A stretch of DNA of 64,000 nt from Iphione sp. A-MEVVRFRX5 (lineage: Eukaryota): assembly GCA_976226885.1 (NCBI GenBank), contig OZ320314.1, forward strand, positions 97,030,001-97,094,000. Direction: 5' to 3'. This document shows, piece after piece, positions 5,788 to 29,652 of this stretch. Made by a program: the position numbers and the translations under genes. Within the stretch, counting starts at the first letter, position 1, and each line of letters opens with the position of its first letter. The notes beneath the pieces are model-generated. The model was not told the DNA's origin. It searched no databases and saw nothing but the letters and a program-made list of their open reading frames with translations.

Positions 5788-5793
5788 ATTAGC
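5788..5793. repeat. Left 6-bp target-site duplication ATTAGC
   Basis: Identical to 29647-29652. 6-bp TSDs are typical of Polinton retroviral-like integrases. Confidence 0.95.
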
Positions 5794-5842
5794 AGTAGTG
5801 TATGAAGGTAACTGCCCTAGACCCCCTTTAGTGCAAAAAGGT
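5794..5842 (+). repeat. Left terminal inverted repeat (49 bp perfect)
   Basis: AGTAGTGTATGAAGGTAACTGCCCTAGACCCCCTTTAGTGCAAAAAGGT is the exact reverse complement of 29598-29646. Confidence 0.96.
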
Positions 5843-5949
5843 CATCTGAGTGCGATCCACTTGAAGTTCGATTTTCGAGAAGGTCAAGTCAGTACAGAGG
5901 TACTTGAGATCGTCATAAACCACTTGAGTTTCCTTGAACCACTTGAGAA

Positions 5950-6079
5950 AAGATAAGAGAGATTATTTCAAATTTCCCGCGCATGGATCCTCTACTTGAG
6001 ATAAGATATCATTTCAAATTTCCCGCGCTTATGAAAGATAAGTAGGTAGAGATAAGATATAATTTCAAATTTCCCGCGC
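5950..6079 (-). promoter_or_regulatory. Three copies of AGATAAGA-Nx-ATTTCAAATTTCCCGCGC (E2F site plus CHR-like TTTGAA, with GATA motif)
   Basis: Exact 18-mer at 5965-5982, 6011-6028 and 6062-6079. The reverse complement reads GCGCGGGAAA-TTTGAAAT. The repeat is seen directly; the function is inferred from consensus motifs. Confidence 0.55.
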
Positions 6080-7383
6080 CCTGAAGTTGGAGCGACTCTA
6101 GACACGATCAGTGTTAAGCATATGTATGAATGAAAGCGCTTCCCATCGATGTCCTTGAGCGCGGAAGCATTGACAATACCATTTGAAGGACATCATTAGG
6201 TCCTCCCATTATAATGACTCTCTTACAGCACTCGCCGACCGAACCACTGGAAAGATGGATCGATTCCCGAGTGTGAAGAGTCAGTGTAGTGGGTGCGACC
6301 ATTTTGTCCAATTTTATATGTGTTATAGGTGGAATTGAAGCAGTTTAAATAAGTCTTTCTTCATATCACCTTGACTGAGCAATGTTCTGTGTTCAAGAAT
6401 GACCTGTTAATGTTTCATTATCGATTTCGGGTCTGAAAAAACGTCTGTCCGGCTCCAATGTGCATGACATCAGTTGTTAACGTCTGACGTATCGTCCTGA
6501 CACTATAGAAACTCTCATTAAGCATAGGTTGGAGAAACGAGAGATACCCGGTTCGATTCCCCAAGTATGCGGACGAGTTTGTAATTAGTGTCGGTGACCA
6601 TTTTAATTTATGTTGATGCGAGTCAGTGCAAATAATTGTATCTGAATGCTAGTCACTATGAACTTTGTTGTGTGGAAAAGAGACGACTAGGTAAGTCTTT
6701 ATTTGATTTTTAGAGTTTGCAAAAATGCAAGTCGGGAGAGCTCATCCAGATGGCGTCTGATGACATTTTATAGCGTCTGACGCGCGTCCTTGGGTTTTAC
6801 ACTAGATGGCGTATGTGTGCGGTGGATGTAATGGATTCACAATACATATAAACCATATGGGATATGGTTATTATAGAAAAGATAAAGGCTCTAAGCCATC
6901 TTTAGATAAAGAAATTTCCCTTGCAACTGACGTCACATTATCCTATCGTTGACGATGGTGAGGCGATATGAAGAGTTCACACTATTGTATTTTGATATTA
7001 CTGATAAAGTCCTTGACTGACATGTCTGAACACGTTTACAAGTGATTACATTATCTGTACATACCGGTGGGATGGAGATATTACACTAGATATAGTCCTT
7101 GCTTCTTTTGTCCTGATCGTGTGGAATGATTTGAATTGGTTTGGATGAATGTAAGGATGCATTTCCTGAAACCCTTAGTGAAAGATACTTGAGACCAATG
7201 ATACCCAGAAGAATACTAAGCGAAGGTTGAGAATGTCCATACATAACACTTAATTTTTTTTTGGTTGTTATAATCTGTTTCGGGTTATCATATAACCCTA
7301 GCTCTATCTTTCTGGGAGCATTACATTTGTTATTGAACCTCAGTCCGGACTAGACGCAGAAGTTTCACCCCCTTTGTTAAAAC

Positions 7384-8470
7384 ATGATGGATATAGCTGG
7401 CAAATACATAATTCGTTCTTATGATCCACATCTGCATGGGAATCGGCATTTTCCTGAACTATATATTCACGAAAAGAACGAAGTACATCGTCCAGTAGTA
7501 TTATACATGAGTGACTATTACTGGAATTGGGAAAAGAACGAAGTACATATGAAGGACATACTCGGACCCGCCCCAATGGGACGTCAAGTGGTGAAACGGG
7601 GTGATTCTCTCTGTGCTTTATGTGTGATGGATCTTTCTGATCATGCAATGGTGATTACTGACGAGATATATGAACTGAAACGTCGTCCATTGGAGGTGTA
7701 TCGTCTGTTCAAGTCCAGCATGCTTGCTTTGAGGAGCATCCTGTTTGACGGCAAACTCAGTTTACTAACTCAAGCGGGTAATGCAGTCGTAGGAAGCATA
7801 TGGCACAGTCTATCCAAACCCACCATCGAGTTTATGATCGAAAACGAAGACGGTGTGCTCGAAGATACCGATGAACATGCCATATATGAACAAATGGGTG
7901 ATTTCGTAGCAGTTATCCAAGAAACTAATAGGAATGGTGATGCGAATCTGATGGAAGGAGATGTTAGAGATGCCGATGATGATGATGATGATGATGAATT
8001 CAATGATCATTCTGTATTTTCCCCTTCTCATCTGGTTCGTTTGGTGGAAGATTCCAACCTGAAGAAAAGGACCCACGAAAAGATCCAACGGCTCCCTCTC
8101 CCTTCGACATTGAAGGATTTTCTAAGTGAAAACATTCTAAAAAACAACCAAGGTCAGGTGAAGAACTTCGGTCAGGAAGGACAATCCCAAAACTACTGCG
8201 ACTGGTATGGGATGACAGAGGCACAAGTGGATCGAGTTATTGACAAATTGGAGAGAGAGAATGAGAAGAAAAATGACAAGGTAAGAAGTTAAATGAATAT
8301 AAAAAAAAATGCAACGACTAGAACAGAAATTAGTGTATTATATTAATTTCTTTGTTGTTGAATTATGATAATCTTCAGTGACAAATTTGAAAGCAATAAT
8401 GAAATTATTTTTTTTTATATTTCTTTTTTGACAGACAAAGGATGATAGCGCTGCCTGCCACTGTAACTAA
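7384..8470 (+). CDS. Accessory protein with acidic tract and C-terminal SOCS/cullin-box-like motif; probable short spliced last exon (7384-8280 + 8435-8470)
   Basis: 302-aa ORF containing KIQRLPLPSTLKDFL, which resembles the SOCS-box LPLPxxLKxYL motif. Donor AAG|GTAAGA at 8281 and acceptor TTCTTTTTTGACAG ending 8434 would replace VRS* with TKDDSAACHCN*. Confidence 0.7.
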
Positions 8471-8777: not shown

Positions 8778-8786
8778 GTATATAAA
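8778..8786 (+). promoter_or_regulatory. TATA box (GTATATAAA) upstream of the spliced pPolB gene
   Basis: Lies about 40 nt upstream of the ACCATGG Kozak-context ATG at 8823. The related GTATATAAG precedes the minus-strand genes at 21438-21446 and 27139-27147. Confidence 0.55.
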
Positions 8787-8822
8787 GGTGTACTATCAAT
8801 AGCTAACTTAATGTTCTCCACC

Positions 8823-9354
8823 ATGGCTCAAGCTGCAGTTGACCTATTGAGGAGACTTGTAGCCTCTTTCTCATCCGAGGAGGAACTCATCTCATGGGCT
8901 GCAGCGAAGGGATTGATGAATAATCCCATCGTATTGGAGAGACAAAATGAATTAAGAAGCAATCATTTGAACAGTAGTGAGGTAAGTCCCCAAAAAACGT
9001 TCTACTGTACTAATGGATAATTTAACAATTGATTACTATACTGTATATACATTTATATAATTCACAAATCATTGCAGGTGGATCTATTGAATAATTTATT
9101 GCTACCAACATCCATGCCTTCACAAACCCAGCAATCTCATTCCTCGGATAATGTCTTCACACCAAGCAAACAGGATGTTAGTTTTCATTCGAAGACTGAT
9201 CAAGACGTAAGTAAAGTTTTTTTTTTTTCTTTGGTATGGTTTAGTAGAACTGAGTTTTCTAATCTTTGGATTTGTGCATCACATCATGTACATGTATTCC
9301 TTGTATAGACTTCTCAAGATGATCGTACGGCTGATGAAATCACCCAACATTCAT

Positions 9355-9386
<32 letters not shown>

Positions 9387-12300
9387 GCAGCACCACCACC
9401 AGCAAGAACAACCACAACTTCTCCTCCAGCATCAGTTGCAGTGTCGTCCGATGTAGCATCTGTCCGATATGAGTCTATTCCGGGGCCAAGTCGCCGACCA
9501 GTGAGTTGAATGAGCTGTTCGACTGAAATAATGATAGAAAATGTATCAATTTCCATACGCGTGAGAGTGTGTGCATGTATGTGCGTGTGTGTGTGTTTGG
9601 ATGCAGTCAGTTATCCTATTTTGTTCTGTCTCTCTCTCTCTCTATGTGAAAAATAAACAGCCGGAAGAAGGATTGGTGAGAGTACTTCCAAGAGAAGAAA
9701 TGCAGAGTCTATATTCCCTGTCATCATCTCCCTCATCTGACGAGATAGAAGAAGTAAGTAAAAAACCTGTGTATTTGTGTTTCCTTACCTGTTTACTGCG
9801 AGCCAGCATACTGCAATCTGTTTTTTGTCATATACTCGTCGTATGAAGTTCCTATAAGAAAACAAAGTACCATGAAGATAACTTACTTCGATTTTTTTTA
9901 AATACAGGTTGTAAAACAAAGGCAATGTGAGAAGTGCTTGAAGAAATTTAAGCGTCAAGGCAATGCCAGGCGACACAAAGAAAGCTGTCAGCAATACAAG
10001 TGCTCTAAGTGTACCCGGTCTTTTAAGAAAGCTTCACTTATGCGAAGGCATCTTCTAAGTCACTCACACAGATTAGAATGGCGATGTAGAAAATGTGGCG
10101 ATTCGTTCGCGAATAAGCGTGAGTTGTATCTACATCGAGGAATCCAACACGGGGGCGGAGGGAATGGAACCACACTCCATGAAGAGGGTATACCCCTCCA
10201 GGTCGAACCGTGGAAGGATGGTGAGCGAGGAAAGAAGGACAAAAGTAAAAAAAGAAAAAGGGACAAGACCCCAAGCGAGAACAATCAGCATCCACCCTGG
10301 TGCAACAGGGAAGGGGAGACCATAGAGCCAGAACTGGAAAGGGTATATAGAGCCAATCAGCGCCACATCCTGGCCCACCATACAGATAGAGAAATCACCA
10401 CCGATTACAATTTCCCCACCAACGATCTGTCACGTGGTCCCCAGGAACTTCACCAATTCTTGGAGACCATTTTCGAAAGAGAAGACCATACCTTCAAGGT
10501 GAATATGTCGTTCGGTATGATATTGCGTAATGTTCAGACGGGTGAATATCGTTATTTCATCCCCTATAGTAACAGTATGGTATTTAACGAACCCATAGTG
10601 GTTTCCCGGGCAAGTGACCTGTCTGAGGTAATGGACACCATAAGGGCAGTGGACCCGGAGAATTACTTCACCCGGAACCGACCAGACACTAAGTGGCAGG
10701 TAGCCATGATAACCAATGTCGTATTTTTCATTACGCGCACCACGTATCTGATGGGTCGAGGTTTCCTTCCCGAGTTTGTGCGAAATAAACGATGTATCAC
10801 TTCCTTAGATGATCATAACGATGCTCTTTGCGCCTTTAGGTGTCTCGCAGTACACCATCAAGAAAACGACGTAGAAGGAGCCGTGAAAGAGTACTATTTG
10901 TCATGGCGTCAGTTCCAATCAAGTCTAGGAAACCGCACACTACCTCCCGACCCCAGTAAATCTAGGGGTGTGGACCTGCGCGACTTGACTCTCTTTGAGG
11001 AATGTTTCCAAGTCGGCATCTATGTATACGAATTGAAGATGAATGGAAGCATATCCGTCATTAGGAAACCTTTCTCTCGTTTTCCTGACATTATGCACCT
11101 TAACCTTCATGCAGGTCACCTCTCTTATGTCAATGACTTCGAGACATACGCCAAGAAGTTTCAGTGCCGTCTCTGTCGACGATGTTTCGGCAAGAGACAT
11201 CACTTTGCGAGGCACTCCAAAGTATGTCCCCTGAGAACACGTTATGTGTACCGAGGGGGATACTACAACAGTCCTTCCACCATATTCGATGATCTGGAAG
11301 GACTGGGAATAGTCGTTTCCCCTGAGGAACGGACTTATGAAGATTTCGCCGTATTTGACTGCGAGGCTATTCTCAGAAGACTCGATGGAGAAAGAGACAC
11401 CCCTAGTGTGACGTGGATTCATCGACACAAGACCATCTCAGTCTCCGTGTGCAGCAACGTACCTGGTTTCACAAATCCTCAGTGTTTCCTACACGAAGAC
11501 ATGAAAACGCTAGTTAATCAGATGATCGAATACCTGGAATCTATTCAGGAAGAAGCTCTAGAGAGAGCAAAACGAAAATGGGGCGACGTGGTCAGTCAAC
11601 TGGAGGAACTACTGCAGGAGACAAACGACAAAATAACGAGACAGTTGGGAGATGCACCCGTTCAAGATCATGTCGTCGAAGACGACGAACTGGTCGATTT
11701 CGTCTTGCATCGTGAGGACGAAGAGAATGTCGACGATGATGCGGATGCTGCCGGCAACGATGATGCTGCCAATGCTGCTGGTGGTGCTAACGATGATGAT
11801 GATGCCGATGATGAAGATGACAGAGGTGGTCACCGCCAGGAGGGGGATCGGACCCACCCTGCCCTGAAGTATAAGAAGACGGTAGAAAAAATACAAGGTA
11901 GGTTCTATGCCTACATGAGTTCGCTACCCATCTTGGGTTTCAATTCTGCCCGCTACGACCTGAACTTACTGAAGGGGGAACTCTTGAGAGCCCTCCAGGT
12001 GGACGAACCAGGTTCATTTGTGATCAAGCGAGAGAACACGTACATCTCCATTTCCACTGTACGCTTCAAGTTCCTGGACATATGTCAGTATCTGTCGCCT
12101 GGTGTGTCCTATGCTCGCTTTCTTAAGGCGTACGGTGCTTCTCAAGAAAAGAGTTTCTTCTGCTACGAGTACCTTGACTGCCCCGAGAAGTTGAAGGAGA
12201 CAGAGCTTCCTCCACACGAGGCATTCTACTCTTGCTTGAAAGGAAGTAACATTTCCATCGCTGATTACGAAAGCCTCCAAGAAGTATGGAGGAAAGAGAA

Positions 12301-21360: not shown

Positions 21361-22030
21361 GATATGTCTCTACTATTGTTTCTCAGTCTACCGTCTTGTT
21401 GTTTCTGCCTCTTTTTTGGCCCGCCTGGTATAATTGTCTTATATACAGTTCATGTAAAGAATGGTCATATTGTTCATGGTACTGGCATTCTCAATCCGAT
21501 GACCAGATAAACACATGATAAAACGCAAGTAATCATTGATACGACCAGTTGCAACAATGTCCTGCCTTATTTCAATTCGTCATATAAATACAAATCGATA
21601 CTGATTCGATTCAATTTTTATCTTGTGTGCGATTAAATAAGGGTTGTCAACCTATGTGAAGGGCTATCATCATCATCATCGATCGTCTGACCGCATCCAT
21701 CTTTCTCGGGGCAAATCTCAATAGAAGCGAGACACAGGTCCCGGAGTTACCGACCAATTAAAAAAAAATTATTCTTTAAATAAATAACATTCCTTGTTGG
21801 AAACACAATTATTAACCGATAATTATTTTGGCTGGGGATGCATTTTTTTAAAAGCGCACCTGCAAGGTCTACATTGAATTTTAGTTGACCCAATTGGTGT
21901 AATTGCAACCTATTTCTTCTGGTCATTTCGCGCCATCGCCATCTTGGATCGCAACCATTACCCGTGGGGTGGACTTGAGACACATACCGTAAGAAGAAAA
22001 ACGATTTAATAGAGAAAGACAACCTGCATT

Positions 22031-23993
22031 ATGCTTTTGTTTATGCTCATTTTGAGCATAATCGTCACGCCGTCTGTAGGTGGTCTCTTATGTGCCAGAT
22101 GCACATGTTTGGATGAGGAGGTGTACTGTTCGTTTATTCCCGGGACATTTCTATTCTCAGTGCACGACCGCCATTACTCAGTGAAAAGACTTATTCTTCA
22201 CCGGGTAATCCTGGAAGATCACCTTGTGGATCTGGCCGCACATCTTCGTGAGATATTCCCTTCGCTTGAAAGCATCAGAGGAGATAATGTCCAACGCATA
22301 AGTGATATTTTCTTTGCTTCACCTGACACTTCAACTTGTCCGACCACCGAGAACGCATCTTCGTCCTCAAGCGACGCCACTACCATCGCACCGGCGGGTG
22401 CATCAGCACCCACCTCAGAGGCGAGGAGAGCTGCCGAGACAAGTGAAGCAACAGACATCGATGAAAATCAATCATCTCTCACTCGCTCGATCGGAAGAGT
22501 CGTCACTGACTTAATGATTACTTTGGGTCTACGTAACAAGAACCAGGACAATATCAAGGATCATTTTTCACCGGTTACAGAGTCGGATGAAAACGAGGCC
22601 AGTACCGTCGGCATGCAGCCATCTTCTGTGTCGTCCGTAGAATATATCGCTTCGCTGAATAGAGAAGAGTTGACCCGTGTTCCCATACCTGTTGAAACCC
22701 AAACTAACGGTGGTACAAGGGCGACAGAGACAGTGCATCTTCCGATTTCATCGCTTGAACCGAGTGAAGTAACTGCAGCTGAAAGGATGGCGAGTACCAA
22801 GGGAGCGGAGATGCCGAAAAACATGTACTGGGCTACATTCTCTTACCAGTCCGAAGGGTCGACGAGAACAAGGAGTGCTGACGACAGTGAGGATGGTATA
22901 GGGTATGTGTCTCTTAATTTACGCCACCCCACGGTGATGGTTCCGATCCATGGAATGGCTCCATCGACAGAGGCATCATATACTACTATTATTTCTGTCG
23001 GCGTGCTCACAGCTGGAGTATTTCTCACCATTGGAGCTTTGTGTGTCATGTGCTTCATGCGCAACTCGAAGAAAGTTCCCAGCTGTAGAGAAGTCTGCCA
23101 TGACTCTGGGCGCCGTCAGACGATGCAGAATGTTGTGGAGCTCATGGAACTTATGAATCGTCATTATGAACGCAGACGAAGGTATGTTTTCCATTACTTT
23201 TAATTTTCATATATTTTTTTTTCACGATTGATACTGAGCAATTACACATGTCAAACAATAGCACAGTGGTAACCCACACCCCCCTTTAATGGGTAGCATT
23301 TTCAATAATAGTATATTTAATTAAAAAACAAAAATTGATGGAGAGCATGATCTTAAATAGTCAGAACCATCAAGAAACATTGCTTTTTTAATTCTGTTTT
23401 TTTTTTGTTTTTTTAATTTAAATTAAATATAATTGCTACTTGCTGTTATTTTGGTCTAAAGAGATGAATTAATCCGTCGAGTGAGAGAGGTCAACACAGA
23501 GCTCAACGATGTTGTGGACAATCAAGAGGGTCTGATGCCACTGCGACGCGTTCAATTACGTCAAGTGGGTGCTCGTCGTTCAGAGCCACGTCTCAGACCA
23601 GTCCCAGACGAACCTCAACCTGGACCAGCACCCAGGGATGCCGTGCCACCTCCAGTGAGAAAGGCGAGACCCGGACAACAAACTAAGGGTAAACGGCCAG
23701 GACCTGCCCCCAAGAATCTCCCTCAGCCTGAACCAGTGGTGGAACCAGCTAATGATGTCAATCCAGCAGCGATGAACGATCAACAGCCCCAACGTGAAGC
23801 GAGAGAGTACGATGACCAACCTCTCCATGCCGTAAACAACGACGACGACATCAACGGTGCTGAGCTTCCCCAGTATGACGGACTAAGTCATGATGGAGAC
23901 CAAATGCAGGAGATTCCGCTGGATGACGAACATGTCGCGATCAGACGCACTGACAGACAGCGCCGCAAACCAGACAGGCTCAAGGTGAGATAA
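22031..23993 (+). CDS. Type-I membrane glycoprotein 2, spliced (22031-23181 + 23462-23993), 560 aa
   Basis: Signal peptide, LLCARCTC...C head, FPSLESI, S/T/E stalk, TM IIISVGVLTAGVFLTIGALCVMCF. The phase-2 donor AG|GTATGT matches the acceptor ...CTAAAG|A and joins in frame to the ATG-less ORF at 23481. Confidence 0.82.
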
Positions 23994-24984
23994 TGGGTTT
24001 CTAACTATATATATAAAATTATATATATTATTTAAATGAATATATTACTACCGAGACTTAGCCTATTTAGCCTAACACAAACAATTTACCATATATATAT
24101 ATTTATTATCCATGTGTTTGATTGTGACATAACTGAATAATAAGTCTTTAGTCAGTATATGGAGAGAAATTATCCTAAGGTGTTAAAAAATATTTTTTTC
24201 TGATAAGATATGTAGAAAAAAAAATGAATTACAATTGCATTCATTAATTGCATGGACATTTTCATTTAATTCTATCTTTATCTTTCCTTTTTTTTTTCTC
24301 ATCAGTACTAGCTCGGTAACGTGGCATTGACGATGGTTGCAGTGGAATATGAAGGCTCCTCCATTGTGAACCAAGAACAACAGGATGTGAATGAAGATCT
24401 ATCACTTGGCGTGAGACAATACTTTCTATAAAACATTTTTTTTTAAATGTCGTCTATCATTCAAGAACATGTACAGCTTGGACTGAGAAACACATTTTCA
24501 AATACTGCCCAGTATCGATGTTAATATGCATATTCCAGAAGAAGTAGGCCTTGGTGTGAGAAACACGTTTTTTTTTTAAAATGCTGCCGACTATCAGAGC
24601 TGAGCTGCTTTAGAAAAAAAATAGAAAAAGTTGGAGGCTCTCATCATGTATATTTACTCGGAGGAAGTTATACATTTGTTACTTGACAGAAAGTAATTGT
24701 GTTTTTTTTTTTATATTATTTTTTATGATTGTACACTAGTACTGTGTGATACGAACGACCTCAAAAAAAAAAGATCTGAACACTATTTTATGACCAAGTT
24801 TGGTACGTCATTTTAGGACGTGAGATAAATAGAGGGAACAGATCATTTTATTATAGAAAAAAGAAAGATATATGAAAGCAAAAATTTTTCTAGTCTAGCA
24901 TTGTATCCCGATATATGAAACAAAGTGAGATAAGTTTACTTATATACATGCATATATAATAGTATGGTATGATGAAGAAATATT

Positions 24985-25445
24985 TACAAACCACAGGTGC
25001 TGATTAGTAACTCGTTCTTAATGCATGCTTATATCTTATATTCCGGTTGAACCGTTCGCTTTTATTGAAAGATACATACATATATATATATCAAAACACA
25101 GAAAGAAAACTACATCCAGGTGATGGTTTGGTATATTATATATTAGATAACATCATATTTTGTACTTTGTTGGATATGATGATCTATTTAAGGATGTTAT
25201 AGCGGCAAAGATTTTACTACACAGGCAGGTGCTGATTATATGTCGTCTATGTTCTCTCTCTCTATATATATATAACCAAATACAAGAAACTACATCCAGG
25301 TGATGATTTTTTTTTTGTATAGTATGTAATAGATCATTTCATTTTGTATACGTTTTTTGGAGAATATGATCTATTTAAAGATGTTATAGCGACACGTATT
25401 ATACTACACAGGAAGGAGATGATTAAGTGTCGGCTATGTTTTTTT
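24985..25445. repeat. Degenerate tandem repeat (about 180-bp period) with CAGGTG motifs in the AT-rich non-coding part of the element
   Basis: AAACTACATCCAGGTGATG at 25107 and 25287. GATCTATTTAA.GATGTTATAGCG and TACTACACAGG each occur twice. CAGGTGCTGATTA near 24996 and 25226. Confidence 0.8.
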
Positions 25446-25922
25446 TTCTTTTCGGTGACACTTTGACTGTAGTAACAGTATTCATGTTTGCTATCATGTA
25501 ATTATACTATACCAAACGGGTGATGATTACTTCATATTTCCATCTGTATTCTAGAAGTGAATGTGATGGACACTGTAGTCGTGATTGAGTTGGTGTTTTT
25601 TTTAAGTAAAAAAGAAAAAGGTGACCAGTTCGGTTTTAATAAAAAAGATTTTTTTTATTACCATATCCTATTGTTACATGATGTGATTTCCCTTTATTAT
25701 ATACCAAAGTCTTAGTACTCTATTATACGAGATGGACAAATCTCAATGTAATCAATAGATTTACATATGTCAACTAGAACATATTGCTATTACTTCTACT
25801 TCTAATAATAATACATACTTCTCATAGCAAAACATCTAGTCGTATAAAAGAAATTTCCATCTGAAATTTAAGTATTACTAAGATTTTCTTTAACGGGCTG
25901 CATCAAACAAAAAAAAAGGTTA

Positions 25923-29265: not shown

Positions 29266-29413
29266 NNNNNNNNNNNNNNNNNNNNNNNNNNNNNNNNNNN
29301 NNNNNNNNNNNNNNNNNNNNNNNNNNNNNNNNNNNNNNNNNNNNNNNNNNNNNNNNNNNNNNNNNNNNNNNNNNNNNNNNNNNNNNNNNNNNNNNNNNNN
29401 NNNNNNNNNNNNN
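29266..29413. other. Assembly gap (148 N) in the right subterminal region
   Basis: Run of N seen directly. The true length is unknown. Confidence 0.99.
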
Positions 29414-29597
29414 CGCTCTTATCTCTTATCATTTGAAAAGTCAAGTAGCACACTGTTCTTATCATGACGTGATCTCTCTTATCTATAAGTAGGGACAACC
29501 CTTATCATGACGTGATCTATCTCCTTATCTATGTAGGTCAAGTTGAAAATGGAAACTCAAGTGGTTCAGGGAAACTCAAGTGGTTTGCACCCAAATA
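29414..29597. repeat. Right subterminal short direct repeats
   Basis: CTTATCATGACGTGATCT at 29458 and 29501, GAAACTCAAGTGGTT at 29552 and 29571, and many CTTATC. Confidence 0.85.
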
Positions 29598-29646
29598 ACC
29601 TTTTTGCACTAAAGGGGGTCTAGGGCAGTTACCTTCATACACTACT
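29598..29646 (-). repeat. Right terminal inverted repeat (49 bp perfect)
   Basis: Exact reverse complement of 5794-5842. A further 31-bp block at 29556-29586 matches 5917-5947 with one mismatch. Confidence 0.96.
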
Positions 29647-29652
29647 ATTAGC
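29647..29652. repeat. Right 6-bp target-site duplication ATTAGC
   Basis: Directly follows the terminal ACTACT and is identical to 5788-5793. Confidence 0.95.

Follow-up and report, generated by a model that had tools for sequence, protein, structure and literature searches.

A predicted spliced 5′ leader in the polymerase gene of a Polinton/Maverick element from Iphione sp.

The window analysed here is a 64,000-nt stretch of DNA from Iphione sp. A-MEVVRFRX5 (contig OZ320314.1, positions 97,030,001 to 97,094,000 of the forward strand). It contains a complete Polinton/Maverick element of 23,853 nt (5794-29646), which in turn contains the gene under study, coding for a protein-primed family B polymerase. 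An earlier note on this DNA had proposed that the polymerase gene possesses a spliced 5′ extension hidden upstream of its long open reading frame (ORF). In agreement with this proposal, the gene most likely starts approximately 1.1 kb 5′ of the long reading frame, with the start predicted to be assembled by splicing. Two findings support the proposal: exon 1 is homologous to the N-terminal part of polymerases encoded by a single ORF, and another element, L002, has a similar leader.

The predicted leader lies on the plus strand, as does the last exon with all its features. A TATA-box-like TATATAA (8779-8785), presumably part of the promoter, is found 44 nt before ATG 8823. From this ATG, exon 1 provides 53 codons (8823-8981), which include a conserved three-helix unit of about 40 residues recognised by homology (~8838-8963). 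It is followed by intron 1 (8982-9077; 96 nt, GTAAGT...CAG), exon 2 (9078-9206; 129 nt, a spacer rich in S, Q and T) and the T-rich intron 2 (9207-9308; 102 nt, GTAAGT...TAG). Exon 3 (9309-9500; 192 nt) encodes an S/A/P/T-rich spacer in which a run of triplet repeats translates into poly-Ser, poly-Ala and poly-Pro, and intron 3 (9501-9660; 160 nt, GTGAGT...CAG) contains GT and CT microsatellites. Exon 4 (9661-9753; 93 nt) forms an S/E-rich spacer, and intron 4 (9754-9907; 154 nt, GTAAGT...T8-AAATACAG) ends six codons before the first zinc-finger cysteine. The four exon lengths in the earlier note (171 from ATG 8811, 129, 192 and 93 nt) and its donors (GAG|GTAAGT, GAC|GTAAGT, CCA|GTGAGT and GAA|GTAAGT) were exact in their coordinates, and the AG acceptors ending at 9077, 9308, 9660 and 9907 were found in place, with all introns in phase 0. 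The exons lack stops as claimed: frame 0 is open in all four, and both other frames are stopped in all four. The long ORF does begin in the middle of a zinc finger, with TTG 9938 located after the CxxC of zinc finger 1, and the extension does amount to roughly 200 aa (191 aa from ATG 8823 to acceptor 9907, about 200 aa relative to the TTG).

Two details of the earlier description had to be revised. The TATA box is present, but the ATG in Kozak context is 8823 (CCACCATGG) and not 8811, which is in frame but weak (T at both -3 and +4) and lies merely 32 nt past TATATAA 8779. Judged by sequence context, ATG 8823 rather than 8811 is likely the start codon. The acceptors had been described as pyrimidine-rich, which is true for 9308 and 9907 (0.73), moderately so for 9077 (0.55) and not for 9660 (0.18). 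Acceptor 9308 is the sole open phase-0 choice among 20 AGs. In-frame alternatives to the acceptors of exon 2 (9131, 9173 and 9194) and of exon 4 (9567, 9606 and 9705) make the limits of these two exons less certain. The GC content is 0.27-0.39 in the introns versus 0.40-0.52 in the exons. Retention of intron 1 would lead to a stop at 9018 and a 65-aa protein consisting of the helical unit alone.

As in U2-type introns, all four have GT-AG ends, a GTRAGT donor and a YAG acceptor. The polypyrimidine tract is good in two introns, moderate in one and displaced in one, and branch-like motifs precede two of the four acceptors. Within the 64-kb window, the introns do not look like introner-generated ones, which are similar copies of a mobile unit: no direct repeat of at least 30 nt touches 8811-9937. 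When 8811-9907 was shuffled 5,000 times with dinucleotide composition preserved, 55 shuffles contained at least four GTRAGT motifs. A frame-blind rule, which chooses the YAG having the longest AG-free stretch upstream, selected the predicted acceptor in all four introns, and under this post hoc rule four donors with an open chain were obtained in none of 20,000 leader shuffles. With exon 1 fixed, a four-donor open chain was again absent from 20,000 shuffles, while three donors were reached in eight. A second acceptor rule, the pyrimidine content at positions -15 to -5, placed the predicted acceptor first for only one of the four window introns and for all three introns of L002. For this reason, and because the first rule was post hoc and fails on L002, the shuffle figure is to be taken as an optimistic bound.

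The 57-residue exon-1 peptide was compared with 1.84 billion representative proteins, and three matches were found at E<=0.001. The best match, P0020, is a fibronectin-III repeat protein whose score sums 14 weak stretches, and it was discarded. P0021 (E 1.6e-7) and P0022 (E 2.7e-5) carry three tandem N-terminal copies of the exon-1 unit. P0022 is a single ORF in which helical units are followed by zinc finger, terminal protein, OTU and exonuclease, and it shares 32% identity with the window polymerase (E 1e-94). P0021, a fragment of 155 aa, matches the start of P0022 at 75% identity. A second search returned five long polymerases, four of which contain the unit: three copies in P0023, two clear copies in P0026 and one each in P0024 and P0025, where the single unit starts at the first methionine, aligned with ATG 8823. 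From the last unit copy to the first CxxC, the distance is 5-12 aa in the five proteins measured (P0021-P0025). Five related polymerases have the unit in one unbroken frame directly before the zinc fingers. Among 2,746 window peptides, the exon-1 peptide was the only significant one for profiles built without exon 1, with E-values of 4.5e-8 and of 1.3e-10, the latter with a next best of 0.39 and reversed controls of at least 1. By these comparisons, exon 1 is real coding sequence. Between it and the polymerase ORF, the three frames contain 10, 18 and 26 stops. Since stops in all three frames part the unit from the polymerase, and since the relatives have a single ORF, splicing would be the simplest link between the two.

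The helical N-terminus that had been anticipated was borne out by a structural model of the relative P0021, which shows three-helix units at a mean predicted local distance difference test (pLDDT) score of 75. Foldseek searches of the PDB and viral models with the unit gave no match at E<=0.001. VIA reached a best Z of 4.5, with an FF domain at Z 3.8, and gave no convincing fold match. Comparison with HeH/SAP/LEM/Lsr2-like or FF families gave only Lsr2 in Pfam, at E 0.041 and 0.21, and searches of Pfam, NCBIfam, PHROGs, PDB sequences and two Atlas searches returned no useful name. Two further likenesses of exon 1 were dismissed: that to the P0015 N-terminus was equalled by 599 of 10,000 shuffles (BLASTP E 0.21, profile E 5.4), and that to P0006 (z 5.0) falls inside the P0006 zinc fingers.

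The last exon (9908-14884) comprises 1658 codons and encodes the protein-primed family B polymerase. Its first in-frame ATG, 10040, lies within zinc finger 2 in a weak context, is preceded by two out-of-frame ATGs and as a start would cost one and a half zinc fingers. The exon begins with three zinc-finger motifs (9926-10150) and a basic K/R patch, a putative nuclear localisation signal (10232-10261). The region 10289-11176 was modelled with AlphaFold (mean pLDDT 88), and its terminal-protein (D1) domain (~10388-10750) adopts the little-finger fold of Y-family polymerases. VIA aligned it with Pol kappa (Z 6.1, root-mean-square deviation (rmsd) 3.2, 97 aligned) and with five more Y-family rows (Z 5.5-5.8), a resemblance of the terminal protein that has been reported before in the accessible part of PMC11071308. 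Next is an OTU-like cysteine protease domain (~10763-11146), similar to OTUD1 (VIA Z 10.3, rmsd 3.1, 118 aligned), whose Cys (at 10829) and His (at 11117) are invariant in all 21 alignment rows. On these models, the two regions are the terminal protein and vOTU domains described in that part of PMC11071308. The exon closes with a C-terminal NADAR fusion (14477-14857; Pfam PF08719, E 4.2e-12). NADAR was also precomputed for five of a set of 18 related proteins and for one of the five long polymerases of the second search, and a literature search on NADAR together with polinton found only papers whose titles and abstracts concern other topics. Between motifs A and B, a polymerase insertion (~12830-13100) resembles the VSR-type endonuclease of mollusc pPolB2, as far as the available text on the latter goes. 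The window polymerase has no match to PF03175 at E 0.01.

Taken together, exon 1 is very probably spliced to the polymerase, and the form with all five exons is probably the main product. The Polinton polymerase would then be a five-exon RNA polymerase II gene transcribed from just past the TATA box at 8779; a bacterial promoter scan was set aside, as the gene is of the polymerase II type. The host spliceosome would excise the four introns, all of them short, in phase 0 and with GT-AG ends, and a protein of about 1849 aa would be translated from ATG 8823. In the predicted order, exon 1 supplies the three-helix unit and exons 2-4 a spacer of low complexity (about 140 aa), and the last exon contributes zinc fingers, basic patch, terminal protein, OTU protease, exonuclease, polymerase and NADAR. 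While the splice signals, phases, open frames, exon-1 homology and domain order were observed directly, the use of the junctions, the inclusion of all three spacer exons and the function are our inference. Cleavage by OTU between the terminal protein and OTU itself is hypothesised in the accessible part of PMC11071308. After such a cut, the helical unit, spacer and zinc fingers would remain on the terminal protein at the genome ends. There, tentatively and with somewhat less than even confidence, they may provide a tether or a docking site for DNA, chromatin or a partner protein. A variable spacer tolerant of insertions is probably where the introns arose; phase-0 exons could be added, duplicated or lost there without a frame break, as the duplicated pair in L002 suggests.

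L002 was obtained from a scan of a genome collection, in which 67 pattern matches resolved into three loci (L001, L002 and L003), all in bacterial bins. These Polinton polymerase contigs are probably animal or other eukaryotic DNA carried over. L002 (JBEVVR010000074.1) belongs to a bin titled as a Thiodiazotropha symbiont, and we infer that it is host DNA carry-over. Its polymerase is 34% identical to that of the window and nearest to the P0008-P0011 group. A phase-0 acceptor, TTTCAG, occurs at 1056, 12 codons ahead of zinc finger 1. It is preceded by two phase-0 exons of 75 nt (201-275 and 535-609), each with a GTAAGT donor and only frame 0 open. These exons are tandem duplicates (58 of 75 nt identical), and the GC content is 0.48-0.55 in exons versus 0.27-0.32 in introns. 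By its sequence, the duplication would be a direct example of the route by which a leader grows, and L002 supports a layout in common, not a sequence in common. L001 and L003 begin within the ORF with no leader visible and were uninformative.

Several observations weigh against the five-exon leader. No nucleotide similarity was found between the leaders of L002 and the window, and the profile of the helical unit scored on none of the three loci, the L002 contig being cut at its 5′ side before any first exon. The in-frame ATG 949 of L002 offers an unspliced alternative, and the two exons of L002 may be part of a different gene. In the window, acceptor 9660 is weak and A-rich, is overlapped by an AATAAA at 9652 and has its CT tract farther 5′; neither 9660 nor 9907 is preceded by a branch-point-like motif. 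The frame-blind rule was picked after the acceptor table had been seen and did not transfer to L002, where it chose the proposed acceptor outright for none of three introns (tied first, second and outside the top three). The profile seeds P0021 and P0022 were first found via exon 1 and are hence not fully independent. A hunt for stand-alone exon-1 ORFs gave one hit among 199 candidates, an uninformative near-copy of the P0025 start. Exons 2-4 matched nothing significantly in the N-terminal 150 aa of the 18 related proteins, and the lack of a fold or family match for the helical unit is no proof of a new fold. Finally, none of these 18 proteins, including the two closest relatives, P0002 and P0003, has the unit in its called ORF; hidden exons and plain absence fit this finding equally.

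Part of this evidence would also suit a leader in which exon 1 is joined directly to the last exon (8981 to 9908) or via some of exons 2-4, with the spacer exons being minor, optional or fortuitous. The resulting 1711-aa product would resemble the compact architecture of P0024 and P0025, the relatives need just 5-12 aa between unit and zinc finger, and exons 2-4 have no homologues while all their combinations preserve the frame. Moreover, in-frame alternatives exist for acceptors 9077 (moderate) and 9660 (weak). However, this account leaves aside three more consensus donors and the open, GC-richer phase-0 exons, a chain that none of the 20,000 shuffles with exon 1 fixed reproduced, as well as the small symmetric exons at the same place in L002, and we regard it as improbable. 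Alternatively, the gene may be split, with exon 1 as an independent gene of 65 aa (8823-9020) and a polymerase made on its own from ATG 10040 or elsewhere. Against this, the homologous region is closed by a consensus donor whose phase agrees with that of a consensus acceptor directly ahead of zinc finger 1, the weak ATG 10040 sits behind two out-of-frame ATGs inside zinc finger 2, and the unit is fused in relatives. Although the unspliced frame is a closed 65-aa ORF whose transcript might terminate at AATAAA 9652, although the unit is missing from many relatives as called and although some Polintons have a separately encoded terminal protein (according to the accessible part of PMC11071308), a split gene appears very improbable.

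The leader may also be a product of decay or a private feature, in that insertions and microsatellites broke a continuous ORF and the splice-like sites are chance or gains of an immobile copy. Microsatellites do occur in exon 3 and intron 3, and terminal repeats of 91% complementarity indicate that the copy is not brand new. Yet the 1658-codon last exon, the integrase and other core ORFs are open, the target-site duplication is perfect, the open chain is far from chance and the distant element L002 has the same layout, so that decay is a very improbable explanation.

For the five-exon gene itself, exon skipping had been suggested to tune the terminal-protein region. As worded, this is not supported: the terminal-protein fold and OTU are located wholly within the last exon, and skipping exons 2-4 would therefore alter only the spacer between unit and zinc fingers (1849 aa with all exons versus 1711 aa without exons 2-4). 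No evidence of regulated exon skipping was obtained. AATAAA 9652 could compete with acceptor 9660, and a regulatory use of intron 1 retention or early polyadenylation is possible, but a regulated splice switch is unlikely. Likewise unlikely is the most far-reaching reading, in which a broad group of marine-invertebrate Polintons would have a hidden spliced leader with an undescribed helical domain, so that single-ORF annotations throughout the group would be truncated, and in which intron retention or early polyadenylation would yield the free helical unit and full splicing the replicase, providing host or element with a splice-level switch between latency and replication that foreshadows E2B.

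To follow the distribution of the unit, a tree was built from 22 regions spanning terminal protein to exonuclease; its backbone is unresolved. The five single-ORF carriers P0022-P0026 form one clade (support 99/96), and the window protein clusters with P0002 and P0003 (support 99/96). By sequence, the unit is thus present in two separate lineages that are about 35% identical. The carriers share with the window gene one to three helical units followed by zinc fingers, terminal protein, OTU and exonuclease, and differ in having a single ORF that requires no introns, with a 5-12-aa spacer and a clade of their own at that identity of about 35%. The nearest relatives that are named are mollusc proteins. 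The 65-residue leader of P0007, rich in U-coded residues, looks like a translated intron end, which is suggestive only. The broader statement that Polinton polymerases are N-terminally truncated in annotation is plausible, but it is backed by this copy and, through its sequence signals, by L002 only; the five relatives are complete and unspliced. With support from two elements, the chances that truncated annotation is common in the group are about even.

Printed accounts of Polintons differ from the predicted gene. Core genes are described as intronless in the accessible literature, in contrast to the four predicted coding introns here: genes of 134 intact vertebrate Mavericks have no introns according to the available part of PMC8097293, which cites Kapitonov and Jurka 2006 in agreement, and nematode Mavericks have introns in cargo genes and intronless core genes (bioRxiv 10.1101/2022.07.12.499685, same limit). 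Introner transposons lie within dinoflagellate maverick-polinton-like elements, as stated in the accessible text of PMC11957031. The printed intron-bearing Polintons hold parasitic insertions or captured host genes, while the window gene has four dissimilar short 5′ introns in a core replication gene. In the accessible text of PMC11071308, the strings intron, splic and zinc do not appear. Likewise, the accessible portions of PMC8502044, 10.1101/2023.08.22.554363, PMC5803895, 10.64898/2026.10.13.758929, PMC8363768, 10.64898/2026.07.28.741253, PMC11296320 and PMC12220804 contain no spliced Polinton polymerase. Overall, the accessible polinton, maverick and adintovirus literature held no such report, with Repbase, supplements and subscription papers, which could hold one, lying outside this scope. 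Neither the N-terminal three-helix unit nor the C-terminal NADAR fusion was met in the available parts of the Polinton/Maverick papers.

A spliced replicase would imply nuclear transcription of the element and nuclear processing of its RNA by the spliceosome of the host, giving the host a possible handle. Structural or functional work on such polymerases may use proteins without the first domain. A new conserved N-terminal unit is defined ahead of the terminal protein, and as there are few experimental handles on Polintons, the predicted junctions may serve as a marker of an active element. In the Drosophila P element, which is unrelated, retention of intron 3 yields a short N-terminal product in place of the enzyme; no evidence of regulated retention was found for the window gene. 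In adenovirus E2B, the upstream coding exon contributes a few residues only. There, splicing chooses between two separate proteins, whereas in the window gene it would place a whole domain and spacer onto one polyprotein. The E2B comparison of the earlier note is a loose analogy, in which the shared 5′ exons joined to a long terminal coding exon in the pTP and polymerase mRNAs do correspond (PMC11304566, accessible part). Adenovirids have been proposed as polinton descendants (PMC11071308, likewise).

The element itself has the AGTAGT ends, terminal inverted repeats, 6-bp duplication and integrase in common with animal Polintons/Mavericks, to which a candidate ATPase-like ORF and a candidate adenain-like protease may be added. 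The polymerase order of terminal protein, vOTU, exonuclease and polymerase is also shared (PMC11071308, accessible part). It probably belongs to the divergent polymerase class, the Beta adintovirus-like one of PMC8502044 and pPolB2 of bioRxiv 10.1101/2023.08.22.554363. The left terminal inverted repeat (5794-5869, plus strand) starts with AGTAGT, and the right one (29571-29646, minus strand), 76 nt long, is 91% complementary to it. The target-site copies ATTAGC (5788-5793 and 29647-29652) match perfectly. A retroviral-type integrase is encoded at 16378-17553 (Pfam rve E 1.5e-8, plus chromodomain), and the polymerase is identified as protein-primed family B by placed exonuclease and polymerase motifs next to the terminal-protein little-finger and OTU folds. 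The packaging ATPase candidate (14922-15557) has P-loop matches, all weak, and the adenain-like protease candidate (19617-20123) matches Peptidase_C5 at E 0.0028, short of the curated cut-off. The double jelly-roll capsid candidate (18308-19645, 446 aa) agrees in size and position and had zero matches in Pfam, PDB sequences, NCBIfam and PHROGs; it also agrees with an N-terminal motif of the major capsid protein. Intronless core genes, a reported trait and no structural criterion (PMC8097293, accessible part), are by prediction not found here, because stops in every frame separate the polymerase ORF from the conserved N-terminal unit. A Pfam search with 20 more ORFs of the element and flanks gave a single, sub-threshold match.

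Accessory-ORF introns were chosen by eye, not by a systematic scan. In three cases, an accessory ORF runs into a donor for which the acceptor ranked first is frame-compatible. The first, 26827 to 26641 on the minus strand, is in phase 2 and leads into 238 open codons (best of 13 AGs); the second, 23182 to 23461, is also in phase 2, with 176 open codons (best of 18 AGs); the third, 8281 to 8434, is in phase 0, with 11 codons (best of 15 AGs). These predicted introns support the spliced-gene reading. The 303-codon ORF 7381-8292, which terminates at a donor followed 154 nt later by a strong acceptor (predicted intron 8281-8434), has a weak SOCS-box match (E 3.7e-4), which suggests a ubiquitin-ligase adaptor. 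On the minus strand, 27153-25926 consists of two ORFs linked by the predicted intron 26827-26641 with strong donor and acceptor, and neither has a Pfam match. In 22013-23993, a predicted signal peptide, an S/T-rich ectodomain and a transmembrane segment, all identified by eye, are linked by the predicted phase-2 intron 23182-23461 to a P/Q/D-rich ORF; a spliced membrane protein is possible. The stop of ORF 17445-17987 falls in a GTAAGT donor, and AGs 18135/18138 are in phase with the capsid-candidate ORF (region 17984-18138). A spliced fusion of the two is possible, though not significant alone, as 35 AGs were considered.

Just within the right terminal repeat lies an assembly gap of 148 bases (29266-29413). 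Three subterminal direct repeats of 31 nt each (5952-6079) terminate in TTTCCCGCGC, which resembles an E2F-type site. The minus-strand ORF 20371-21369 (333 codons) is hydrophobic at its start and contains a long mucin-like tract encoded by triplet repeats. The AT-rich region 24900-25540 contains short diverged repeats around CAG|GTG motifs, with a 47-nt pair at 25083/25263, and these could be micro-exons or a regulatory array.

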